NCBI RefSeq assembly: GCF_037902255.1
Contig: NZ_CP147990.1
Span: 4,230,001-4,262,000, forward strand
Length of the DNA: 32,000 nt
Source of the DNA: Candidatus Electrothrix sp. GW3-4
GTDB lineage: Bacteria; Desulfobacterota; Desulfobulbia; Desulfobulbales; Desulfobulbaceae
Reading direction: 5' to 3'
In this document: in pieces, positions 2,208 through 11,144 of the stretch
How positions within the stretch are numbered: the first letter of the stretch is position 1
Layout: every line of letters starts with the position of its first letter
Position numbers and translations under genes: made by a program
Notes under the pieces: model-generated
Told to the model about the DNA's origin: nothing
What the model saw: only the letters and a program-made list of their open reading frames with translations
Database searches by the model: none

Positions 2208-2237
2208 AGAAATTTTTACGTCTTATTTTCTTTTCTC

Positions 2238-2284
2238 TTTTTCACCACCTGGTGAACATCACCGAGGCATCATATTCCTTTGGG
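2238..2284. repeat. 47-bp repeat 'A' copy 1, containing the perfect 16-bp palindrome TTCACCA-CC-TGGTGAA (2241-2256)
   Basis: tttttcaccacctggtgaacatcaccgaggcatcatattcctttggg matches 4626-4672 with 4 mismatches in 47, in the same orientation. It lies 3 bp after the CNNM stop and 30 bp before the 2207 start codon. Confidence 0.8.
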
Positions 2285-2289
2285 GGTTG

Positions 2290-3417
2290 TCATCCATCAG
2301 GCGCACGGCTTTTTGTGTCGGCTGAATGAGTCTGTTCAATCTTTTTTTTGTCAACGATATCAGCATCAATTCCCAGGGCCTTTGCCCGTTCCTTCCATTG
2401 TTTTCGCGCCAGAGAACGCATGTCTTCAACATCGTCTGTTTCATCCATAATTTCCATGCCCATAAGTGTCTCGATGAGGTCCTCCAGGGTTACCAGTCCA
2501 TCCGTTCCTCCATGCTCATCGACGACTATAGCAATGTGCTGGCGCTCCTTAAGAAACCTCTCCAATAAGACGACCAGGGAAATCGACTCAGGAACAAAAA
2601 GTATTTCACGCTTCAATGCTGTGAGCTTTTTGTCGCTTTGCTTCTGAGCGGCGTTGATCAGAATATCCTCTTTAAGAACAAAGCCAGTTATGTCATCAAT
2701 ATGCATCGCATAGAGCGGGAGGCGTGAAAAAGGGGTTTGGGTAACTTGTTTCATCGAGTCGATAATTTTCATGTCCTCGGGTAATGCAGAGATGACAGCA
2801 CGTGGCGTCATAATATCGTTCACTTTGAGTGACTCGAATCGGAATATATTTCGGATAATCCTTGATTCCTTATCGCGAATATGCCCCGTCTCTACACCTA
2901 CCTGAGCCATGGCGATGAATTCGTCTCTACTGAAAATGTGAATATCATTTCCATGTGAAATAGACTTTGTCAGTTTCTCCGAAATCCATACGAGTGGATA
3001 AAGGACCACAATCAAAATGTTGACAAGATATGAAGTTGGACCTGCAAGTTGTGCCCAGTAGACGGTGCCTAAAGTTTTCGGCACGATTTCGGAAAGAAAA
3101 AGGATCAAAAGGGTCATGACAGCTGAAAATACGCCAAACCATGCGCTGCCAAAGACGACTGTCGCCTTGGAACCGGAACCAATGGCACCAACTGTATGGG
3201 CAATAGTGTTGAGCGTTAAAATGGCCGCAAGTGATCGGTCCACATTATCCAGTCTCAGTTGTTTCAAGAGTGCTGCATACTGAGGCCGTTTTTCTTTCTG
3301 CCCTTCGATATAGGAAGGGGTAATGCTGAGGAGTACTGACTCTGCTACTGAACAAAGAAATGAAAACAGGAGTGCCAGCAGGACGTAAAGTATTAACAGC
3401 AGAGCATCAGTGCTCAT
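2290..3417 (-). CDS. CNNM/DUF21 transmembrane domain plus CBS-pair protein (hemolysin-family, putative Mg2+/Co2+ transporter)
   Basis: 375 aa. N-terminal 4-TM DUF21-like region (LSITPSYIE..., LAAILTLNTIAHTVGA), followed by a tandem CBS-like region (VNDIMTPRAVISAL ... HIAIVVDEHGGTDGLVTLEDLIETLMG). No CorC_HlyC C-terminal domain is evident. Confidence 0.85.
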   Translation of the reverse strand: MSTDALLLILYVLLALLFSFLCSVAESVLLSITPSYIEGQKEKRPQYAALLKQLRLDNVDRSLAAILTLNTIAHTVGAIGSGSKATVVFGSAWFGVFSAVMTLLILFLSEIVPKTLGTVYWAQLAGPTSYLVNILIVVLYPLVWISEKLTKSISHGNDIHIFSRDEFIAMAQVGVETGHIRDKESRIIRNIFRFESLKVNDIMTPRAVISALPEDMKIIDSMKQVTQTPFSRLPLYAMHIDDITGFVLKEDILINAAQKQSDKKLTALKREILFVPESISLVVLLERFLKERQHIAIVVDEHGGTDGLVTLEDLIETLMGMEIMDETDDVEDMRSLARKQWKERAKALGIDADIVDKKKIEQTHSADTKSRAPDG

Positions 3418-3649
3418 ATTTTCAATGCCTCTTTTGTGAGAACGTATTAATTTCTCTTTTGCTTTTTCAGTATATCAACAAGTATACGTTAATATATTGG
3501 AAAGTTAATCAGTTATCAATAATACAATTGATAAACAAAAAATACTCACAAGACAAGGATAAACTCACCGTTACAGTGAAAGGATGTACCAACTCAGGTA
3601 TGTAATTGCTGTATCAGCAGGGCGAGGCAAATTCCGGTGAGGAACCAGA

Positions 3650-3695
3650 GAGAGAGGAGCTTAAGCTGTTTTAATCACAACAGCTCAAGCGGTGA
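3650..3695 (-). repeat. Repeat 'B' copy 1: 12-bp-stem hairpin (arms 3659-3670 / 3679-3690) followed on the minus strand by CCUCUCUC
   Basis: Minus strand reads gcttgagctgtt-gtgattaa-aacagcttaagc. The only non-Watson-Crick pair is G-U on the minus strand (A-C on plus). It matches 4501-4547 at about 83% and lies 45 nt downstream of the DUF3047 stop. Confidence 0.7.
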
Positions 3696-3740
3696 AAAAT
3701 TGAAATTTTCCATGATGTTGATAGTATTGTAACGACAAAT

Positions 3741-4403
3741 CTACTCAGAGCTAAAAGAAATATCATCGTAGTAGGACTCCGCTACCAACCCGCTATTATC
3801 GGTATCGGTCATGACGGCAATAGCATCTATATAACGATAGGCTTCTATATTGTCTGCCTTATTTCCTTTATCTCCAAAATATTTAATCATATCTTCGTAT
3901 ACATTGCGTTTTTCGTAGTACCATTTCTCTGTACTTGAGTCCTTACCTCGAACTGACACCATTTTAACGCTTGAGCCAGCATACGCATTATTCCAAATTT
4001 TCCCCTGAGCTTGTGAGCCAGACCAAACATAATTGAGAGCTTTGGTTTTTAAACCCATGAAGCCCTTTTCAATAACAACATAAATTCGAGCGGCATAATC
4101 ATCACCATCTTTAGTACGCTCATCTAACCCAGGGAGCGTTTTGGAAACTCGCCAACTCCAACTCATATAAGGCGTTTTAAGCAGATCAATTCGTTTTTTA
4201 AGAACCAAACCTGATGCACTACCGTTACTCAACGCTTTCAATACTGGCTTGCCTTCGAGCAACATCAACTCATAAGAAGTTTCTCCTGAAAATATCTGTT
4301 TCTTCCATGCCTTAATCCCATCTGTGCCAAATGAAGTCAAATCAGCATTTGCATTGGAGTACAAACAGCACAAAGTGAGAGCCAATAATGGATATATTTT
4401 CAT
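3741..4403 (-). CDS. DUF3047-like secreted protein
   Basis: 220 aa with a signal peptide (MKIYPLLALTLCCLYSNANA). Motifs W..Q.F.GET.Y, YMSWSWRV and DDYAARIYVV are typical of DUF3047 as I recall the family. Confidence 0.75.
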   Translation of the reverse strand: MKIYPLLALTLCCLYSNANADLTSFGTDGIKAWKKQIFSGETSYELMLLEGKPVLKALSNGSASGLVLKKRIDLLKTPYMSWSWRVSKTLPGLDERTKDGDDYAARIYVVIEKGFMGLKTKALNYVWSGSQAQGKIWNNAYAGSSVKMVSVRGKDSSTEKWYYEKRNVYEDMIKYFGDKGNKADNIEAYRYIDAIAVMTDTDNSGLVAESYYDDISFSSE

Positions 4404-4500
4404 GAGTCCACAGTTCCTACGCTTTTATTTTGTTGCATATAACAGGATATTAAACAGGAAAACATGGAAAGCAAGGGAGAGAAGAAGGTTTGCCATCTGC

Positions 4501-4547
4501 CGGAGAGGGGCTTGAGCTATTTTAAACCACAACAGCTCAAGCAGTGA
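4501..4547 (-). repeat. Repeat 'B' copy 2: hairpin (arms 4510-4521 / 4531-4542) followed on the minus strand by CCCUCUCC
   Basis: Minus strand reads gcttgagctgtt-gtggtttaa-aatagctcaagc. The single non-Watson-Crick pair is again G-U on the minus strand only, at a different stem position than in copy 1. Confidence 0.7.
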
Positions 4548-4625
4548 GAGAAGCCAGAGTGTCAGCGTGGTTATCGCAAGGCGTTTGTTCGATTTGATTG
4601 TTTGAATCATTGCTCCGTGCTTGTT

Positions 4626-4672
4626 TTTTTCACCACCTGATGAACATCACCGAGGCATCATGTTCTATTGGG
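4626..4672. repeat. 47-bp repeat 'A' copy 2 (palindrome variant TTCACCA-CC-TGATGAA, 4629-4644)
   Basis: tttttcaccacctgatgaacatcaccgaggcatcatgttctattggg is a direct repeat of 2238-2284. It lies 70 bp downstream of the stop of the 4743..5015 gene. Confidence 0.8.
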
Positions 4673-4742
4673 ATTATTCACTTCACAGTGATTTAATATA
4701 ACGGGCTGTTATGCAACGTGGTCTCAGGGGAGGCGAGAGAGC

Positions 4743-5015
4743 TTAATCGCGAGGATATAAACCTTCATTGTTGCGTTCTGGAATGGGAATATTATTTTCT
4801 TTTAAGTGAGATAAGAGTGTTGTTTCAAAATCTGGATGCCAACCATCTCGATTACTATCATAGCATGATTGGCATACATCAAGCTTATACCGAGGTATAT
4901 GCTTTCCATTGTAAAAATGACGTCCCATTTGATATTTTGTACCGCATATTGTACAGGTGCATATGAATTTAAATTCACCTGGATTTTTCCCCATCTTTAG
5001 ATTGTAAGTGGACAT
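4743..5015 (-). CDS. Small zinc-ribbon-like hypothetical protein
   Basis: 90 aa with two Cys pairs (CTCTIC ... CQSC). AT-rich. No family recognised. Confidence 0.5.
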   Translation of the reverse strand: MSTYNLKMGKNPGEFKFICTCTICGTKYQMGRHFYNGKHIPRYKLDVCQSCYDSNRDGWHPDFETTLLSHLKENNIPIPERNNEGLYPRD

Positions 5016-5038
5016 TTAAGTTATCTCTTTGACCTCTA

Positions 5039-5488
5039 TTAAATTTTTCCTAAAAAATATGTTACTGTAGAAGCAAATATAGCAGAAAAAATTGCAATTA
5101 AAAAAGTGAATCGTTTCTCAAATTTTTTGCTTCTATCTTCATTTAAATATAAGTATCCTTTGCCAGTCAGGGAATACAAATGATCACTCAATTTTTCTTT
5201 ACAGCTCCAGGTCACACCTTTGTATGTTGCTTTATAATCACCACTTGATGTGGCAAATAGTTTCCATGCAAGTACCTGCAATTTAAGTGAAGTATATTCT
5301 GGATTTTTATCCGGCTCATCTTTTTTTACTAATGAGTCTTCAACTAATCCTTGAGTTATAAGAGAGGCAAAAGGGTAAAAATCTCTATGATCACCGTATA
5401 TTTTCGGTAACAAAGAAGAAATAACTGAAAGTTTCACTTCCCCTTCTTTTTCTATTTTTTTCAAAATTTTTAATGAAAGATCAATCAT
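5039..5488 (-). CDS. Hypothetical protein with a C-terminal transmembrane helix
   Basis: The track ORF starts at TTG 5491. ATG at 5488, preceded by GAGGA, is the more likely start. The C-terminus FTFLIAIFSAIFASTVTYFLG is a TM helix. AT-rich. Confidence 0.5.
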   Translation of the reverse strand: MIDLSLKILKKIEKEGEVKLSVISSLLPKIYGDHRDFYPFASLITQGLVEDSLVKKDEPDKNPEYTSLKLQVLAWKLFATSSGDYKATYKGVTWSCKEKLSDHLYSLTGKGYLYLNEDRSKKFEKRFTFLIAIFSAIFASTVTYFLGKI

Positions 5489-5557
5489 CAAGTCCTCGAG
5501 GCAGTTTTTATAACCAACCTACCAACAGAAAGAAACGCCCCGTTGGCAGGTTATAAT

Positions 5558-5767
5558 ACCACATTCAACGCTTTCAACGAGATATTTCAAGCGTAAAATA
5601 TCCCATTCGATGCTTACAACGTGACGTTTGATGTTTAAAACGAGGCATTCGAAGCTTCATATGAGGCATTTGAAGCTTAAAACGAGGCATTCAAAGCTTC
5701 ATATGAGGCGTTTGAAGTTTAAAACGTGGCATTCAAAGCTTCATATGAGGCATTTCATCTCGGCAAC
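5558..5767. repeat. Array 1: ten strictly phased 21-bp tandem units, with a core of three 42-bp repeats at 5642-5767
   Basis: Units start at 5558, 5579, 5600, 5621, 5642, 5663, 5684, 5705, 5726 and 5747. The core is GAGGCATT(C/T)(G/A)AAGCTT with alternating spacers CATAT and AAAAC. There are no indels across 210 bp. Confidence 0.9.
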
Positions 5768-5825
5768 AGGGGAAGAAAAAGAAGAAATGGGAGAGAGGAA
5801 CTATATAATATAGTTAAGAAAAAGA

Positions 5826-5924
5826 TCAAAGCAGCTTCCCGTTAATCTCCCCGGCCAACTCCTCCGGCGTTTTCCCCTCTGTATCCAAGACCAGATCCGA
5901 ACCAACCCGATAGAGCGGCTCCCG
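5826..5924 (-). pseudogene. Displaced duplicate of the aroK 3' end (last ~33 codons plus stop); left direct repeat of the inserted cassette
   Basis: 5838-5924 matches 7683-7769 with 4 mismatches in 87. It translates in frame to REPLYRVGSDLVLDTEGKTPEELAGEINGKLL*, against aroK's REPLYRAGSDLVLDTEGKTPEELAGEINGRL*. There is no upstream kinase domain. Confidence 0.85.
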
Positions 5925-5943
5925 CTTCGCCACAGCAGGGGGT

Positions 5944-6495
5944 TTACAGCAGATGACGTATTCGAGTGAATTCTTCACAAGCCGCAACCAGCGAGTCAGG
6001 TGGTGATTCAAGCTCAATATTTTTTCTGCACGTATCCGCAAGGCTGTCGATAAAGGGGTGAGCATCTTTTCGTTCCGAGAGAGCACCATATTTGTTTTTA
6101 TAGATATTTTTCTCCTCCTCATTAATAAGCTCCCCTGCAAGGTACGCTATCCATGTTTCAATATGCCACTTGGGTATAATGTAGGCTATCGGCTCTGCTT
6201 CGTCTCTCGGTGGCAAAAGTTTTGCTGCCAACTCAGTCCTGACCTGCTCAACAGAGAACTCATCAGCATCCTGAATCACCAACAGGATCGTCGCGGCATG
6301 TCGAGATCGGCACGCTTTGGCTTCTTCAGAAAATTTTTCCAGCACAAATTTTTTACCTGATCCCTTACCACCTGGATAAGGAACCACTCTGATTGTACGA
6401 GGTTTTACCCCCCACCCCTTTTTCAGGAAACGGGTTACAAATATTTCATGGGCCCTGTCTTCACAGAGAATAATAATTTGCGATGCCTTACTCAT
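5944..6495 (-). CDS. Small TOPRIM-like protein (DUF4276/DUF4435/RloB-type), partner of the upstream ATPase
   Basis: 183 aa. IIILCEDRAHEIFV (beta-strand plus acidic residue), LLVIQDADEF (DxD) and IPKWHIETWI follow the order of TOPRIM-like catalytic elements. Its start overlaps the ATPase stop by 8 nt (ATGAGTAA). Confidence 0.65.
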   Translation of the reverse strand: MSKASQIIILCEDRAHEIFVTRFLKKGWGVKPRTIRVVPYPGGKGSGKKFVLEKFSEEAKACRSRHAATILLVIQDADEFSVEQVRTELAAKLLPPRDEAEPIAYIIPKWHIETWIAYLAGELINEEEKNIYKNKYGALSERKDAHPFIDSLADTCRKNIELESPPDSLVAACEEFTRIRHLL

Positions 6496-7597
6496 TTTCC
6501 CATCCCCGAGCCATTACCTCAGCCGGAGGCAGATCGGCTACTTGAGGAAACTGATCAACAACAACATGCGCCCCTTCCTGACGAGAGAACCAAAGCTCTG
6601 TTCCCCGTGCCATCTTGTTGATAATTTCAGGATGATGAGAGGTGATGAGAGCCTGTTTGTCGTGTTCATCACAGATATCGTTAAGATTTTCAAGCCAAGG
6701 CTGAATTTCGCGTATAGAAATAAAGTTGTCCGGCTCATCAATCAGCACGGTCGAAAAAATTCCGGCCCGCAGAGCCTCCAAAATCGTGTAGAGAACAATC
6801 AACTGTCGCTGCCCGTCAGAAATATTTGAGAAGGAGAACTCATAGTCCTTACCTTCAATGCGGAATGTTGCTGTTAATTTTCGTGATTCACCCGCCTCTC
6901 TAAGGCTCAACTGTTCAAACCCAGGGAGAACGTCCTCTAAAAGTTCTTTTGCCTTATAACTGACAGCGGGTTCTTCCTGCAGGAGATGGCGATACCACTG
7001 GGAAAAATTTTCAGTATGTTTAGAAAGGTTACGCGACTCAGCAACAGCTGCGTCCTGTACAAGTAAGGGAACAGGATGAATCAGCAGAATCTTCTCCAAT
7101 TCCTCTCTAAACATGATTAATGGTTTATTATCATCACGTTGAGCAACTGTAGGGATGACTGATCGTTCCCAATTCGCCGGAAAAACAGCACCCTCTTCCG
7201 GTTTTTCTGTCTTCCAGTTGATACGATAGAGATGTGCCTCCTGCCCCTCGAACAAGAAAAAGGGAGAACCGTTCCAGATGAGTTGTTCTCGTTTAATACG
7301 CTGCTTCTCTTCATGATCGGCATATTCAATCGTCAAGCTGTACTTATATACCTCATTGTTTACTTTCAGAGAAAATGCTATGCTCTGCTCACGCCTTGTA
7401 TTCCAGGTTGTCAGGCTGTTTCTGTTGAAGATATCGTTCACATGCTCGCCTCGCATCAATCGTTGAACGCTGCGTAATGCATCCAGCACAGAAGTTTTGC
7501 CCGACCCATTCTCTCCAAGCCAGAGTTGAAATTCCCCTGGTTTGATTCGAAAATTTGTCAAAGAACGAAAGTTGTCAATATAGATTTCTGTTATCAT
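6488..7597 (-). CDS. SMC/ABC-type ATPase (AAA_15/AAA_21-like)
   Basis: I place the start at MITEIYIDNFRSL (ATG 7597). The 170 extra N-terminal residues in the track ORF read into the GC-rich aroK region. Motifs: Walker A GENGSGKTS, signature-like SDGQRQL, Walker B VLIDEPDNF, H-loop ITSHHP. About 369 aa. Confidence 0.85.
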   Translation of the reverse strand: MITEIYIDNFRSLTNFRIKPGEFQLWLGENGSGKTSVLDALRSVQRLMRGEHVNDIFNRNSLTTWNTRREQSIAFSLKVNNEVYKYSLTIEYADHEEKQRIKREQLIWNGSPFFLFEGQEAHLYRINWKTEKPEEGAVFPANWERSVIPTVAQRDDNKPLIMFREELEKILLIHPVPLLVQDAAVAESRNLSKHTENFSQWYRHLLQEEPAVSYKAKELLEDVLPGFEQLSLREAGESRKLTATFRIEGKDYEFSFSNISDGQRQLIVLYTILEALRAGIFSTVLIDEPDNFISIREIQPWLENLNDICDEHDKQALITSHHPEIINKMARGTELWFSRQEGAHVVVDQFPQVADLPPAEVMARGWENE

Positions 7598-7673
7598 AGA
7601 TATATTTACTTTGTTATTTTCTGATGTCAGGTTGATTAAGTTCGTGCCGAACCTCTGTAGAACAGCATCTTTT

Positions 7674-8351
7674 TCAAAGCCGCCCGTTAATCTCCCCGGC
7701 CAACTCCTCCGGCGTTTTCCCCTCTGTATCCAGAACCAGATCCGAACCCGCCCGATAGAGCGGCTCCCGTTCCTCCAGGATGGCAGAGACCTCCTGAGCC
7801 GGGTTTTCCCAACCTTCCTGCTTGTCCAAGGCAGGGCGTTGCTCGGCCGTCTTCTGATCCAAGGCCAGCCGGGCCAGGGTCGTGGCGAGATCCGTGCGCA
7901 GCCAGACCACAAAGGCATCTCGGCGCAGCTCTTCCCACGCATCTTGGTGCAGAATAGCTCCACCGCCGGTGGCGATGATGGTTTCCTGCCAGGAAGACAG
8001 TTCCTTGAGCAGGGTTCGCTCCTGTCCACGAAAATATGGCCATCCCTGTTGGCTGACGGCATCTGCAATAGAGCAGCCCATACGCTGGTAGAGCTCCTGA
8101 TCCGTGTCAAGAAAGCGAAAACCGGTTAAGCGGGCCAGGGCCTGACCCACAGCGGTCTTGCCCGTGGCCCGAAACCCGGTCAGGACGATGCGCTCAGGAA
8201 GTCCTTGCTGCTCCCCTGCGCCCTTCTTTCTCGCCAACCCATCCCCTGACCTGCTTTTTTTTGTTGCCCTACCTTGCACCTTATTCACAAACTCCTTATG
8301 TTTTGAGGTTGATTTTTCCCTTTTCCTCCTGCCGCAGGTACTGTATGACAT
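7674..8351 (-). CDS. aroK: Shikimate kinase
   Basis: IVLTGFRATGKTAVGQALA (P-loop), FLDTDQEL and ATGGGAIL. The start is uncertain. ATG 8351 gives a 45-aa Lys/Arg-rich extension. In-frame TTG 8237, with AGGGGA upstream, gives a typical ~188-aa protein. The last ~33 codons (7683-7769) form the right direct repeat of the cassette. Confidence 0.8.
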   Translation of the reverse strand: MSYSTCGRRKREKSTSKHKEFVNKVQGRATKKSRSGDGLARKKGAGEQQGLPERIVLTGFRATGKTAVGQALARLTGFRFLDTDQELYQRMGCSIADAVSQQGWPYFRGQERTLLKELSSWQETIIATGGGAILHQDAWEELRRDAFVVWLRTDLATTLARLALDQKTAEQRPALDKQEGWENPAQEVSAILEEREPLYRAGSDLVLDTEGKTPEELAGEINGRL

Positions 8352-8454
8352 ACGGCATAAATTTTCATCCCTCAATGATATCCCATGAAAAAAACTATGA
8401 CCTTGCTCCCTGATCGAAAAGCGGGGGCAAACAAGACCGCTGCGGAGAAGTTCC

Positions 8455-9783
8455 TTGGTTGCGGATAATCTTTTTGCCCTGATTGGCCAGCTCCATTTCC
8501 CTTCCCTGATCATCGGCATGGGCCTGACCGCCCTGGCTATGCTGTCTCTGTTGTTGCTGGTCTGGAACCGACTCCAGCGCGAGAACCTCCTGCTTTCCCT
8601 GCAACTGGAGCAGACCGGCGAGGATGCCCGCCGCTTTGAACAGGAGGCGGAAGAACTGCGGCGGGAGCGGGAGAGCCTGCGGCAGCAGAAGGAAGAGGCG
8701 GAGCGGGATAATATCGGCCTGGAGGCCTTTCTTCACGAGACCCGGGCCATTGCCGGTGAGCGCCAGCAATTCCTCGCCCAAAGCAAGCAGCAGCTGGCAG
8801 AGGATTTTTACAATCTCTCCCGCAAGGTCATGGCCGAGCAGGGGAGGGTCCTGCAGGAGCAGCATGCCGGGGGACTGGAACATCTCCTCTCACCGGTGCG
8901 CAATCAGTTGGATGCCTTTCGTCAGAAGGTGGAGGATGTCTACGAGCGGGAATCCCGCGATCGCCTCTCTCTGAGCAAGGAGGTGGAACATCTCAGGCTG
9001 TTGAACGAGCGGCTCAGTCAGGAGGCGGTGGAGTTGACCCGGGCCTTGCAGGGGACCAATAAATTGCAGGGGCAATGGGGGGAGATGGTCCTGGAGCGGC
9101 TCCTGGAGGAATCGGGTCTCCGACCGGGCAGCGAGTTTGCCACCCAGGTCTCGCTGCGGGATGAGCAGGGGCGTCTCAAACAGCCGGACGTGATCGTTTA
9201 TCTTCCTGAAAAAAGGGCCGTGATCATTGATGCCAAGATGTCCCTGAACAGCTATGTGGCAGCAGGTCGGAGCGATGATGAACAGGAGCGGGAGCAGCAT
9301 CTGGGCAATCATATCAATTCCATTCAACAGCATGTCAAGGGCCTGAGCAAAAAGCAGTACCACGATCTCCCGGAGCTCACCACCCTGGATTTTGTCCTCC
9401 TCTTTATCCCGGTGGAAGGGGCCTTTCAGGCAGCGGTGAGCAGGAAACCGGAGCTGCTCACCCAGGCCCTTCGGCGGCGGGTGATGATTGCCTCGCCCTC
9501 AACCCTGCTGGCCATCCTCCGCACCATCCATCATATCTGGCGGATGGATGAGCAGAACCGCAACAGCCTGATCATTGCCCAGGAGGCAGGCAAGCTCTAT
9601 GATAAGTTTGTTGGTTTCACCGAGGCCTTTAGCGAGGTCGGAACCCGCCTGGATCAGGCCCACCAGAGCTGGCAATTAGCAGAAAAACGTTTGAGCACAG
9701 GCAAAGGTAATCTCATAGACCGGGCTGAGGCCCTGCGACAGCTCGGGGTGCAGCCGAGCAAGGATCTGGCAAAGGAACGATGA
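8455..9783 (+). CDS. rmuC: DNA recombination protein RmuC
   Basis: 442 aa: N-terminal TM helix, long coiled coil, then an RmuC nuclease-like core (PDVIVYLPEKRAVIIDAKMSL, LLFIPVEGAF). The start is TTG 8455 or ATG 8518. Confidence 0.9.
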   Translation: MVADNLFALIGQLHFPSLIIGMGLTALAMLSLLLLVWNRLQRENLLLSLQLEQTGEDARRFEQEAEELRRERESLRQQKEEAERDNIGLEAFLHETRAIAGERQQFLAQSKQQLAEDFYNLSRKVMAEQGRVLQEQHAGGLEHLLSPVRNQLDAFRQKVEDVYERESRDRLSLSKEVEHLRLLNERLSQEAVELTRALQGTNKLQGQWGEMVLERLLEESGLRPGSEFATQVSLRDEQGRLKQPDVIVYLPEKRAVIIDAKMSLNSYVAAGRSDDEQEREQHLGNHINSIQQHVKGLSKKQYHDLPELTTLDFVLLFIPVEGAFQAAVSRKPELLTQALRRRVMIASPSTLLAILRTIHHIWRMDEQNRNSLIIAQEAGKLYDKFVGFTEAFSEVGTRLDQAHQSWQLAEKRLSTGKGNLIDRAEALRQLGVQPSKDLAKER

Positions 9784-11144
9784 TGCAAAAGAAAGGAATG
9801 ACCGCCCGTGGCCTGGCCCTGGAGACCCTGGTGCAATGGACAGGCAGCGGCAAGCCGGTGCAAGGCTTTATCAATAGGATTATTCATGACTCGGGCCTGA
9901 AGAATGAGGAGCGTCAGCTGGCCGTGATGCTGGTGCTGGCCGTGTTGCGGGAGCAGGAATATCTTGATCTGCTTATCAGCAGCTTTTCCAAGACCAAGTT
10001 GCGCAAAATGAAGCCGCTGACCTTGGCTGCCCTGCGGATTGGGGTGGTGCAGATCTGCCGCCTGGAGCGTATCCCGGATTCAGCTGCGGTGAATGAGACG
10101 GTCAAGGCCCTGAAAAAGATGCGTCAGCCTGGCTGGCTCTGTAGTTTTGTCAACGGGACCCTGCGTAATATCGCACGAAGCAAGGAGAGCCTGCCAAGCC
10201 CGGAAGAGGCAGGCCCAGGAGGGACGCCGGTGCTCAATCATCCGGTCTGGCTGACCGAGCGTTGGCAGGAGCATTTTGGTCGGGAGCAGATGCAGGCGAT
10301 CTGCCGGGTGAATAATACGGAACCGGCACTCTGTCTTCAGGTCAATCAGGTGCGAACAGATCAAGAGACCCTGGCTGAGCAATTTTCAGAGCAGGGGATA
10401 CGAACCGAGCCGGGCAGCTTTGCTCTGGACAGTCTGATCCTCCAGGAGCAGCGGGGGGCAGTGACCGACTTACCCGGTTTTACTGAGGGCCTCTTTCAGG
10501 TCCAGGATCAGGCAGCGCGCCTGGCCTGTGAGCTTTTGAGACCCTTCAAGGAGCAAGGGCGGTACCTGGACGGCTGTGCAGGTTTAGGTGGCAAGACCTG
10601 CATCCTTGCCGCGCTGCTTCCTCAGGATGCCTCGCTTGTTGCGGTGGAGCCGGATCAGCGGCGCTCCCGCCTCTTGCAGGAGAATCTTCAGCGCCAGGGC
10701 CTGAGCGAGAAGGTAGAAACCGTGCAGCAGGGGTTGCAGGGCTTTGCTGCTGACGATGATCGCCTTTTTGACGGCATCTTTATTGATGCCCCCTGTTCCG
10801 GCACCGGGATCATTCGCAAGCATCCTGACATCCGCTGGAACCGGCAGCCTGAAGACCTTGTCAGCTCTCAGAAAACCCAGCTTGCATTATTGCAAACAGC
10901 GGCTACCTTGATTAAACCTGGTGGGGTACTCGTCTATGCCACCTGCTCCCTGGAGCCGGAGGAAAATCAGCAGGTGGTGGAGCAGTTTCTCACTACCAAC
11001 CCTGCCTTTGCACTGACTGATTGCCGGGATTTTCTGCCTGCCTCAGCTGCTTCCCTGGTGGATGCGCAGGGCTTTTTTGCACCGCTGCCCACAGAGGAGA
11101 TTGAGGGGTTCTTTGCAGCACGGTTAGTGCGGAGTGCATTATAA
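9780..11144 (+). CDS. rsmB: 16S rRNA (cytosine967-C5)-methyltransferase
   Basis: 454 aa: NusB-like N-terminal domain followed by FIDAPCSGTGIIRKHPDIRW and YATCSLEPEENQ (RsmB/Sun m5C methyltransferase motifs). ATG overlaps the rmuC stop. Confidence 0.9.
   Translation: MMQKKGMTARGLALETLVQWTGSGKPVQGFINRIIHDSGLKNEERQLAVMLVLAVLREQEYLDLLISSFSKTKLRKMKPLTLAALRIGVVQICRLERIPDSAAVNETVKALKKMRQPGWLCSFVNGTLRNIARSKESLPSPEEAGPGGTPVLNHPVWLTERWQEHFGREQMQAICRVNNTEPALCLQVNQVRTDQETLAEQFSEQGIRTEPGSFALDSLILQEQRGAVTDLPGFTEGLFQVQDQAARLACELLRPFKEQGRYLDGCAGLGGKTCILAALLPQDASLVAVEPDQRRSRLLQENLQRQGLSEKVETVQQGLQGFAADDDRLFDGIFIDAPCSGTGIIRKHPDIRWNRQPEDLVSSQKTQLALLQTAATLIKPGGVLVYATCSLEPEENQQVVEQFLTTNPAFALTDCRDFLPASAASLVDAQGFFAPLPTEEIEGFFAARLVRSAL

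Follow-up and report, generated by a model that had tools for sequence, protein, structure and literature searches.

A stand-alone ABC ATPase and TOPRIM-like gene pair of the HEC-01 class beside aroK in a cable bacterium: a candidate anti-phage cassette

Which kind of system is encoded by two overlapping genes at the 3' end of the shikimate kinase gene aroK in a cable bacterium, and from where did it come? The question is raised by a stretch of 32,000 nucleotides from Candidatus Electrothrix sp. GW3-4 (contig NZ_CP147990.1, positions 4,230,001 to 4,262,000 of the forward strand), which is called the window hereafter and whose own numbering is used for all coordinates given without a locus name. 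On its minus strand, an ATP-binding cassette (ABC) ATPase of 369 amino acids and a TOPRIM-like putative nuclease of 183 amino acids form a stand-alone two-gene cassette. The pair is of a known kind and not of a new one, namely a so far unannotated stand-alone member, possibly a subfamily, of the class HEC-01 (Hma-embedded candidate 01; Hma, helicase-methylase-ATPase). This assignment is based on the architecture, on the match of the ATPase and on the embedding of close homologues in Hma systems. With regard to function, we consider it fairly probable that the cassette represents an Hma-derived sensor ATPase with a toxic nuclease, i.e. a HEC-01-class candidate anti-phage system that would act by abortive defence. 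The pair occupies the following positions.

6488-7597, minus strand: gene for the ABC ATPase, 369 amino acids, Rad50/SMC-head type, HEC-01A-like (open reading frame (ORF), Pfam, PADLOC, AlphaFold2, Foldseek)
5944-6495, minus strand: gene for the small partner, 183 amino acids, TOPRIM-like putative nuclease (ORF, family alignment, AlphaFold2, family-level links by hidden Markov models (HMMs))
6488-6495, minus strand: overlap of the two genes, ATGAGTAA, 8 nucleotides (sequence)

At the junction, which reads GGGAAAATGAGTAAGG, the ATG of the small gene overlaps the last sense codon and the TAA stop of the ATPase gene by 8 nucleotides, and a start codon inside the end of the preceding gene is the geometry expected for translational coupling. 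An initial annotation of this DNA, made from its letters alone, had given the coordinates exactly and had described the overlap of stop and start. The motifs it quoted are likewise all present at the expected places in both proteins. In the ATPase these are the Walker A motif GENGSGKT (residues 28-35), the signature SDGQRQL (260-266), the Walker B motif VLIDEPD (284-290) and the H-loop SHHP (320-323), all four of them invariant in an alignment of 42 sequences; the small protein carries CED (11-13), DAD (76-78) and PKWHIETW (108-115). The ATPase gene starts with the ATG at 7597. Among the best 120 of its 1,685 homologue clusters (E <= 1e-10), nearly all are exactly 369 amino acids long, and the consensus of the homologue alignment begins with MIxEIYIDNF. 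The TTG at 8110, which appeared as the start in a longest-ORF listing, is contradicted by these lengths and is an artefact.

The ATPase can be placed with some precision. It is matched by the Pfam families AAA_21 (4.5e-17), AAA_15 (1.1e-11) and SMC_N (1.9e-11), the first two of which correspond to the layout proposed in the initial annotation. Its best PADLOC match is HEC-01A (PDLC04178, 1.8e-27), with residues 2-329 aligned to positions 9-334 of the 399 in the model, and HEC-01A models make up four of its top seven matches in this collection. They are followed by PDC-M25A, AbiLi (3.3e-23), a generic AriA/AAA_21 model and mad3, while PtuA matches at 1e-12. The match to the AriA model PDLC02980 (ATPase residues 28-327 against 6-304 of 304 positions) appears generic because its alignment is identical to that of the Pfam AAA_21 model. 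Among NCBIfam models, the top match is MAD3 (NF047739, 1e-17), which with 64.5 bits remains below the equivalog cutoff of 420, and the N-terminal RecF model matches weakly (3.6e-9, 36 bits versus a cutoff of 172 bits). The AlphaFold2 model, built with 42 homologues, has a predicted local distance difference test score (pLDDT) of 91.4 and a predicted template modelling score (pTM) of 0.90. In a Foldseek search against the PDB, Rad50 heads were closest (E 8.5e-13; template modelling score (TM) 0.59), with SMC heads next and then PtuA from Septu and from the retron Ec78/Eco7 complexes (E ~3e-11, TM 0.42-0.55); a phmmer search against the PDB gave generic ABC and SMC matches only. AriA, GajA and OLD, which the initial annotation had named among the proteins of this layout, are absent from the top 50 PDB neighbours of the ATPase model. 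Judged from this model, the protein is a compact ABC ATPase of the Rad50/SMC type, in which a beta-rich first insertion and a short helical hairpin replacing the coiled coil are predicted. The same description is given for the ATPases of HEC-01A to HEC-04 in the preprint by Payne et al. (bioRxiv 10.1101/2024.01.29.577857).

The small protein belongs to a large family, in which all 114 homologous clusters at 90% identity are labelled hypothetical; named clusters are from Desulfobacterota, Synergistota, Hydrogenedentes, Phycisphaerae and others. An exhaustive profile search retrieved 1,573 representatives, almost all of approximately 180 amino acids, which sets the family size to about 1,570 clusters counted at 50% identity. 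Residue and HMM comparisons in this wider family were made with 66 diverse members having a mean column identity of 35%. In all of them E12, D76, D78, W115 and E126 are invariant, and C11, D13, P108 and T114 are conserved in at least 90%. The AlphaFold2 model of the window protein (pLDDT 91.7, pTM 0.88) shows, according to DSSP, the order b1 (6-10), a1, b2 (35-37), a2, b3 (69-74), a3, b4 (103-106) and a4, followed by three helices. The CED motif (C11-E12-D13) follows directly after b1 and the DAD motif (D76-A-D78) directly after b3, which is the Toprim arrangement of a Glu after strand 1 and a DxD after strand 3 (PMC12065111). The order of TOPRIM elements read in the initial annotation is thus recovered in a confident model, with the Glu and the DxD invariant.

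Links to known families emerge mainly from the wider family. PADLOC models for HEC-01B match 24 (PDLC04202, best 2.9e-8) and 20 (PDLC04205) of the 66 members, followed by mad4 and PDC-M31B with six each, PDC-M38B with five and AbiLii with one; in Pfam, at E <= 0.01, DUF3226 is found in 11, DUF4276 in nine and RloB in two. The consensus of the wider family reaches 30.0 bits with DUF3226 (residues 9-122), above the gathering threshold of 27, and 20.9 bits with DUF4276 (residues 13-172), below the threshold of 30.2, while the consensus of the close family matched no Pfam family. DUF4276 and RloB have been placed in the Toprim superfamily, and Mad4 was equated with DUF4276 (PMC12065111); a literature search on DUF3226 returned no papers. 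Taken from these profiles, the kinship with DUF4276, DUF3226 and RloB is real at the superfamily level, although by Pfam criteria the protein is a member of none of them. Structure searches were less conclusive. Foldseek found nothing in the PDB at E <= 0.001; the top matches were lumazine synthases with TM 0.36-0.40 and root-mean-square deviations of mostly 7-9 Å, and GajA and retron Eco2 gave TM 0.41-0.42 (GajA TM 0.42, E 0.38, not significant). The two best matches in BFVD were a DnaG TOPRIM domain and a RloB-like protein (TM 0.50, probability 0.91), at a non-significant E of ~0.035. The family profile found nothing among PDB sequences (best, a ribosomal protein, E = 0.94), and PHROGs gave no useful match to the small protein (best 0.017). 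Hence, the designation TOPRIM-like is well supported by predicted topology, invariant residues and profile links, and it goes along with no significant structural match. For the initial annotation this means that the expected topology was obtained and a significant Toprim fold match was not. Similarly, of the profiles it had named, AAA_15 and AAA_21 were found in the ATPase, whereas DUF4276, DUF4435, RloB and Toprim_OLD were not found in the small protein itself. Its view that the subtype may be poorly characterised agrees with the absence of any significant Pfam, NCBIfam or PADLOC match to this protein.

How does the pair relate to known defence systems? HEC-01 is described by Payne et al. 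(bioRxiv 10.1101/2024.01.29.577857) as the candidate consisting of "ABC ATPase plus TOPRIM", and the two-gene combination of an ABC ATPase with a small TOPRIM-like partner is the one found here. HEC-01B also matches 24 of the 66 wider-family members, and close homologues of the pair are embedded in Hma. The differences are that the window protein has only E = 0.04 with HEC-01B; that the ATPase match holds at the family and not at the subfamily level; and that the window copy stands alone beside the aroK end. With the current HEC-01 models, the system would probably escape any search in which both genes are required. MADS resembles the pair in combining an AAA_21-type ATPase (MAD3) with a DUF4276-type Toprim protein (MAD4) in association with a methylation-based system. 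However, the MAD3 score is far from its cutoff (64.5 versus 420 bits), MAD3 and MAD4 are encoded in an eight-gene operon, and the pair here stands alone, in a window without mad genes. PARIS, with its split ABC ATPase and TOPRIM effector (AriA/AriB), serves as a mechanistic template, but AriB is a DUF4435 protein of 35 kDa and AriA a protein of 55 kDa with coiled-coil insertions (the IS1/IS2 helical insertions), compared to 183 and 369 amino acids here, and DUF4435 matched neither the small protein nor any of the 66 members. Furthermore, PARIS is often found on phages and satellites, whereas the small-protein family was not found on viral contigs. OLD and GajA share the ABC ATPase, the Toprim domain and the metal site of Glu and DxD; they are single fused polypeptides of ~580-660 amino acids, in contrast to the two overlapping ORFs here, which have no GajB-like helicase partner, and Toprim_OLD matched neither the small protein nor the 66 members. 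Of the defence ATPases with a solved structure, PtuA of Septu and of retron Ec78/Eco7 comes closest, but it is larger, and its partner PtuB is an HNH nuclease and not a Toprim protein. AbiL also combines an AAA_21-type ATPase with a small partner, and the AbiLi HMM matches the ATPase, whereas AbiLii matches one of the 66 wider members and not the window protein. Membership in PARIS, AbiL, OLD or MADS was therefore rejected, given the lack of DUF4435, Toprim_OLD and AbiLii matches, the deviating sizes and the failed MAD3 cutoff. The initial annotation, which had proposed a PARIS, AbiL or split-OLD architecture, was right regarding a coupled ABC ATPase with a small TOPRIM-like partner as a candidate anti-phage module, an architecture supported by Pfam, the models and the profile links; as a statement of membership it did not hold, HEC-01 being the precise home.

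The two genes behave as one unit. Among the 54 retrieved loci with enough upstream sequence, an ATPase homologue lies directly upstream of the small gene in 52, ending 4 nucleotides inside it. The overlap of the ATGAGTAA/ATGAGYAR type is kept in 27 of 28 aligned junctions, where a GGGTGGGA-like stretch precedes it. Moreover, the percent identities of both proteins to the window copies are correlated (r = 0.96, n = 33). The ratios of nonsynonymous to synonymous substitution rates (dN/dS) in comparison with the window copies are 0.06-0.12 for the ATPase gene and 0.10-0.16 for the small gene, which indicates that both window genes, intact as they are, evolve under purifying selection.

Where the unit breaks, it is the small gene that is lost. 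In Ca. Electrothrix laxa (OW818652, L012) an orphan ATPase gene (6615-7712 of that locus; 365 amino acids, 84% amino acid identity, all motifs intact) occupies the same aroK site, and the small gene has vanished without a trace, the similarity to the window ending exactly at the gene junction; this locus lacks the second aroK-end repeat described below and has a 13-codon mini-ORF after the ATPase stop. In Electrothrix sp. Rat3 (L151) the ATPase is intact (87%) beside a small gene shortened by a deletion to 112 codons, the deletion fusing codon ~97 to the equivalent of window position ~2217. Frameshifted small genes closing at 114 codons are found beside intact ATPases in the Hma-embedded loci L120/L121 and in L124. 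Altogether, the small gene was deleted, truncated or frameshifted next to an intact ATPase in four independent lineages, and no locus with a disrupted ATPase and an intact small gene was found among those compared; at one locus (L095) both genes are degraded. If disruptions fell at random by length, the probability that four of four hit the gene making up one third of the target would be ~0.012. This bias is what a small protein acting as a costly or toxic effector under the control of the ATPase would lead one to expect.

The neighbourhoods of homologues point to the origin of the cassette. In Desulfobulbus alkaliphilus (L001) the pair is flanked by the genes for a DUF1156 methylase and for a DUF499 ATPase, and SNF2 helicases are encoded nearby; we take this arrangement to be the Hma system of Payne et al. 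The position between the DUF1156 and DUF499 genes recurs in L106, L120, L121 and L130, and the homologues embedded in this way are 55-76% identical. Scars of this arrangement are also found. Upstream of the cassette, seven loci (L090, L094, L095, L097, L099, L102, L103) retain 90-145 nucleotides of a methylase 3' end together with a leader of 48 nucleotides, and in three of them (L090, L095, L097) a 36-nucleotide piece of the DUF499 5' region is left downstream. The methylase remnant in front of the 48-nucleotide leader was also measured as the final 45-95 nucleotides of the DUF1156 gene. E. laxa and Rat3 clearly retain the Hma-type leader and the methylase-end scar, while the leaders of the window and of L010 have diverged. 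These sequences show that the cassettes of the window clade arose inside Hma systems and repeatedly left or outlived them.

Other copies have various neighbours. Two adjoin MNT/HepT or RES/Xre toxin-antitoxin modules, and one has a gene for Uma2 and another AAA_21 gene as neighbours. In a Synergistaceae bacterium (L002-L005, 8769-11852) the pair lies within a polysaccharide locus, where a Polysacc_synt_2/epimerase gene adjoins it on either side and a DUF3800 gene is nearby; no long flanking repeats were found there. Such repeats are lacking at three copies of the pair other than that of the window. At L092 (18013-19579), just after gyrB, a second AAA_21 ATPase gene (350 amino acids) is followed by an overlapping gene for 170 amino acids without Pfam match, which may be a paralogous pair of ATPase and small partner. 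Finally, the leader between methylase and ATPase in L001 (8871-8910) contains a tandem duplication of 20 nucleotides, ATCAACCGATGATAAAGGAA / ATCGACCGATGATAAACGAA, that extends across the start codon of the ATPase gene, and the motif ATCGACCGATCATCAACCGATGA recurs in many leaders and could be a regulatory site.

In the window, the cassette is inserted at the end of aroK, and the features of this site are as follows.

7674-8519, minus strand: aroK, shikimate kinase (Pfam SKI 3.5e-37, residues 117-277; relatives in L010-L014), the true start being probably downstream of the longest-ORF start
7678-7777: copy 1 of a direct repeat, the functional aroK 3' end, fused to the cassette leader (repeat search, alignment)
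7598-7673, minus strand: leader of 76 nucleotides, from the aroK stop to the start of the ATPase gene (alignment)
5833-5932: copy 2 of the direct repeat, the aroK 3' end in duplicated and displaced form, 11 nucleotides past the small-gene stop (repeat search, alignment)

The direct repeat of the aroK end (100 nucleotides, 91% identity) brackets nothing more than the leader and the two genes, and the leader is a diverged form of the one found after the DUF1156 methylase gene where the pair lies within Hma. In three other Electrothrix loci (L011, L013, L014) the site at the aroK stop is empty and a convergent beta-helix gene follows at once. Since L010 shares the left junction of the window, the insertion is older than the split between the two. 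The repeat copies are 91% identical to each other compared to ~80-85% with the aroK ends of relatives. Copy 2 can be aligned with the native aroK ends of relatives beyond both repeat ends (upstream GCTGTG...GGCG, downstream TTTTTC..AAC), whereas copy 1 cannot. We read copy 2 as the displaced original aroK end and copy 1 as the one that probably came with the cassette. Two kinds of event could each account for the layout of repeat, insert and repeat, namely one crossover with a circle on which an aroK end was joined to the cassette, or homology-facilitated illegitimate recombination with a related donor. An integrase-mediated island was rejected, as no integrase, transposase, tRNA or Rfam element was found in the window. 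Regarding the composition, the pair has a guanine-plus-cytosine (GC) content of 0.45, close to the window mean of 0.463, and looks foreign because of the local contrast with the GC-rich upstream aroK/rmuC/rsmB block (0.58-0.61). A recent horizontal arrival was therefore rejected on compositional grounds, and the alignments show an insertion that is old and common to relatives. Hence, the earlier statement that the pair is the sole cargo of an insertion at a housekeeping gene end is borne out by the repeat and the empty sites, and its description as compositionally foreign is not.

Several observations concern the surroundings of this insertion. It is the rmuC-rsmB block itself (8500-11000; GC 0.58-0.61, 0.65-0.73 at third codon positions) that deviates from the rest of the window (~0.46). 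Just past repeat copy 2 and upstream of a 150-amino-acid ORF (5039-5491), a 42-bp tandem array occupies 5625-5755 (3.1 copies, or 5.4 copies of 21-bp subunits; unit GAGGCATTCGAAGCTTCATAT, palindrome GAAGCTTC), which could be operator- or iteron-like. That ORF is one of two adjacent orphan ORFs on the minus strand (4743-5491) in the stretch of lowest GC content of the window (0.31); it encodes a protein with a C-terminal hydrophobic helix, and the other one a Cys-rich protein of 90 amino acids with the look of a zinc ribbon. Neither had a Pfam or PADLOC match. The block from ~2217 to 6203, i.e. from the middle of the small gene through copy 2, the tandem array, the orphan ORFs and the DUF3047 gene to the CNNM/CBS gene, has no counterpart in Rat3 (L151, 7395-7602), where synteny resumes at window position ~2217 on the side of an RsgA-type GTPase and where the beta-helix gene, and not aroK, precedes the cassette. 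These comparisons show a neighbourhood prone to rearrangement in Electrothrix. A promoter and terminator scan remained at background level.

How might such a pair act? In PARIS, the trigger reportedly releases AriB from AriA. The ABC ATPase AriA and the TOPRIM nuclease AriB co-purify as a complex of ~430 kDa, and the viral protein Ocr of T7 acts as trigger. Once active, AriB cuts specific tRNAs. P2 OLD, which was reported to be an abortive tRNase, forms a tetramer that is inactive until its destabilisation opens the TOPRIM site for tRNA cleavage. By analogy with these precedents we infer that the ATPase of the window would be the sensor and regulator and, bound to the small nuclease, would keep it inactive. 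On a cue from the phage, which could be a protein trigger or an aberrant nucleic acid, the ATPase would change its state and free or open the nuclease, whose metal site of Glu12, Asp76 and Asp78 would then cut host or phage nucleic acid, with tRNA as the substrate suggested by precedent and DNA as the alternative. The outcome would be the arrest of the infected cell, i.e. abortive infection. With regard to its history, the cassette goes back to copies lying between the methylase and ATPase genes of Hma systems and landed at the aroK 3' end in an Electrothrix ancestor.

Direct evidence that the HEC-01 class has a defence role is sparse and points both ways. With one HEC-01 representative, E. 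coli B was protected from at least one of the phages T4, T5 and T7 (PMC12881386). The HEC-01 representative of Payne et al. gave no protection against the phages used there, and this is the first of several points that weigh against an anti-phage function of the pair. Three of the seven Pfam-annotated contexts of homologues are purely housekeeping neighbourhoods, no relatives were found on IMG/VR viral contigs, and tblastn searches of INPHARED phages and PLSDB plasmids with the window protein or the wider-family consensus returned nothing. The window contains no Hma genes, and PADLOC recognised nothing in its 10 other ORFs except JetC at 1.5e-4, a weak match that is taken to be coiled-coil noise; a defence island in the window was rejected on this account. 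The small protein alone has no match in Pfam and NCBIfam, and its best PADLOC scores (PDC-M38B, E 0.014; HEC-01B PDLC04205, E 0.04) are not significant. The leader shows no sigma-70-type promoter above background and no strong Shine-Dalgarno sequence. Furthermore, dN/dS of the ATPase between the two partner-less Electrothrix lineages, E. laxa and Rat3, is 0.065, and such constrained orphan ATPases hint that the ATPase may have a role independent of its partner.

Some of these points are taken up by other explanations. A doubtful extension of the Hma-derived defence reading is that the cassette is autonomous and, having no recombinase of its own, relocates by homology-anchored recombination that drags along scraps of its flanks, and that its ATPase has a second, partner-independent function. 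The relocation is proposed because of the scars of methylase ends and DUF499 starts in many genomes and the duplicated aroK end here, and the second function, which may be immunity against incoming copies of the same toxin, would explain purifying selection after repeated deletion of the nuclease gene. It seems unlikely that the pair is instead an orphaned accessory of an Hma- or MADS-type restriction system, i.e. its nuclease arm or checkpoint, which beside aroK would be inert or would need an Hma system encoded elsewhere in the genome. Such an origin is consistent with the Hma-embedded close homologues and the scarred copies outside, with a window free of Hma genes, and with the decay of the effector in E. 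laxa and Rat3, as it would befall a module that has lost its purpose. In MADS, moreover, mad3 and mad4 are each needed for full defence, each deletion reducing it, and deletion of the methylase-side mad5 is possible only together with that of mad2 or mad3 (bioRxiv 10.1101/2023.03.30.534895). However, both window genes are intact and under purifying selection, most sampled loci are stand-alone and nevertheless intact with a conserved overlap, and the match to MAD3 is far below its cutoff. In addition, Payne et al. regard the HEC modules embedded in Hma as systems in their own right, several of which defended when expressed alone, and one HEC-01 representative worked alone in E. coli. We regard as quite unlikely a selfish addiction cassette resembling toxin-antitoxin systems, with the small nuclease as toxin, the ATPase as neutraliser and any anti-phage effect being incidental. 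The asymmetric loss of the small gene and the constrained orphan ATPases do resemble toxin-antitoxin decay, the insertion between housekeeping genes is patchy across phyla, and the Pfam description of AAA_21 reads 'putative AbiEii toxin, Type IV TA system'. But an ABC ATPase of 369 amino acids that has kept all of its catalytic motifs makes a costly antitoxin, no member of the family was found on plasmids, although addiction modules thrive there, and the repeated embedding in a defence system together with the defence phenotype of the HEC-01 representative points to immunity.

The remaining alternatives concern the biochemical role of the two proteins. That the small protein adopts a generic three-layer alpha/beta (flavodoxin-like) fold and serves as a catalytically inert adaptor or regulator, while the ATPase does the work, e.g. 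by binding or compacting DNA like Rad50/SMC, is in our view highly improbable. It is true that lumazine synthases head the PDB fold matches without any significant TOPRIM match, that the window protein has no direct HMM match and that orphan ATPases remain under purifying selection. Nevertheless, the lumazine synthase matches are poor, E12, D76 and D78 are invariant exactly at the positions of the TOPRIM metal ligands in a family with only 35% mean column identity, the profiles link the family to DUF4276, RloB and HEC-01B, and preferential loss would not be expected of an adaptor. Hardly credible is a housekeeping pair for DNA repair, in which a RecF/Rad50-like ATPase and a RecR/OLD-like Toprim protein would serve chromosome maintenance. 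The nearest folds are Rad50 and SMC heads, RecF matches weakly and the pair adjoins rmuC and aroK, but the RecF score is far under its cutoff, the pair is absent at the same site in sister Electrothrix genomes, it is scattered over unrelated phyla, where its contexts are unrelated too, it occurs within Hma systems, and its partner gene is repeatedly lost. A sensor ATPase with a toxic nuclease, derived from an Hma system and probably anti-phage, is the reading that we retain.

One contribution of the locus is to reveal an annotation gap. In a family of ~1,570 clusters, neither the small protein of the window nor any of its close relatives is recognised by a model of Pfam, NCBIfam or PADLOC, and stand-alone systems of the HEC-01 type are for this reason probably missed in censuses of defence systems, those of cable bacteria included. 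For the HEC-01 class, on which experimental tests so far disagree, the linkage and co-divergence of the two genes, the invariant metal-ligand triad and the four-to-zero bias in small-gene loss provide comparative support for a model of sensor and toxic effector. The conserved Hma scars on stand-alone copies, although an incremental advance, show in concrete terms how a defence module may leave the system in which it was embedded.

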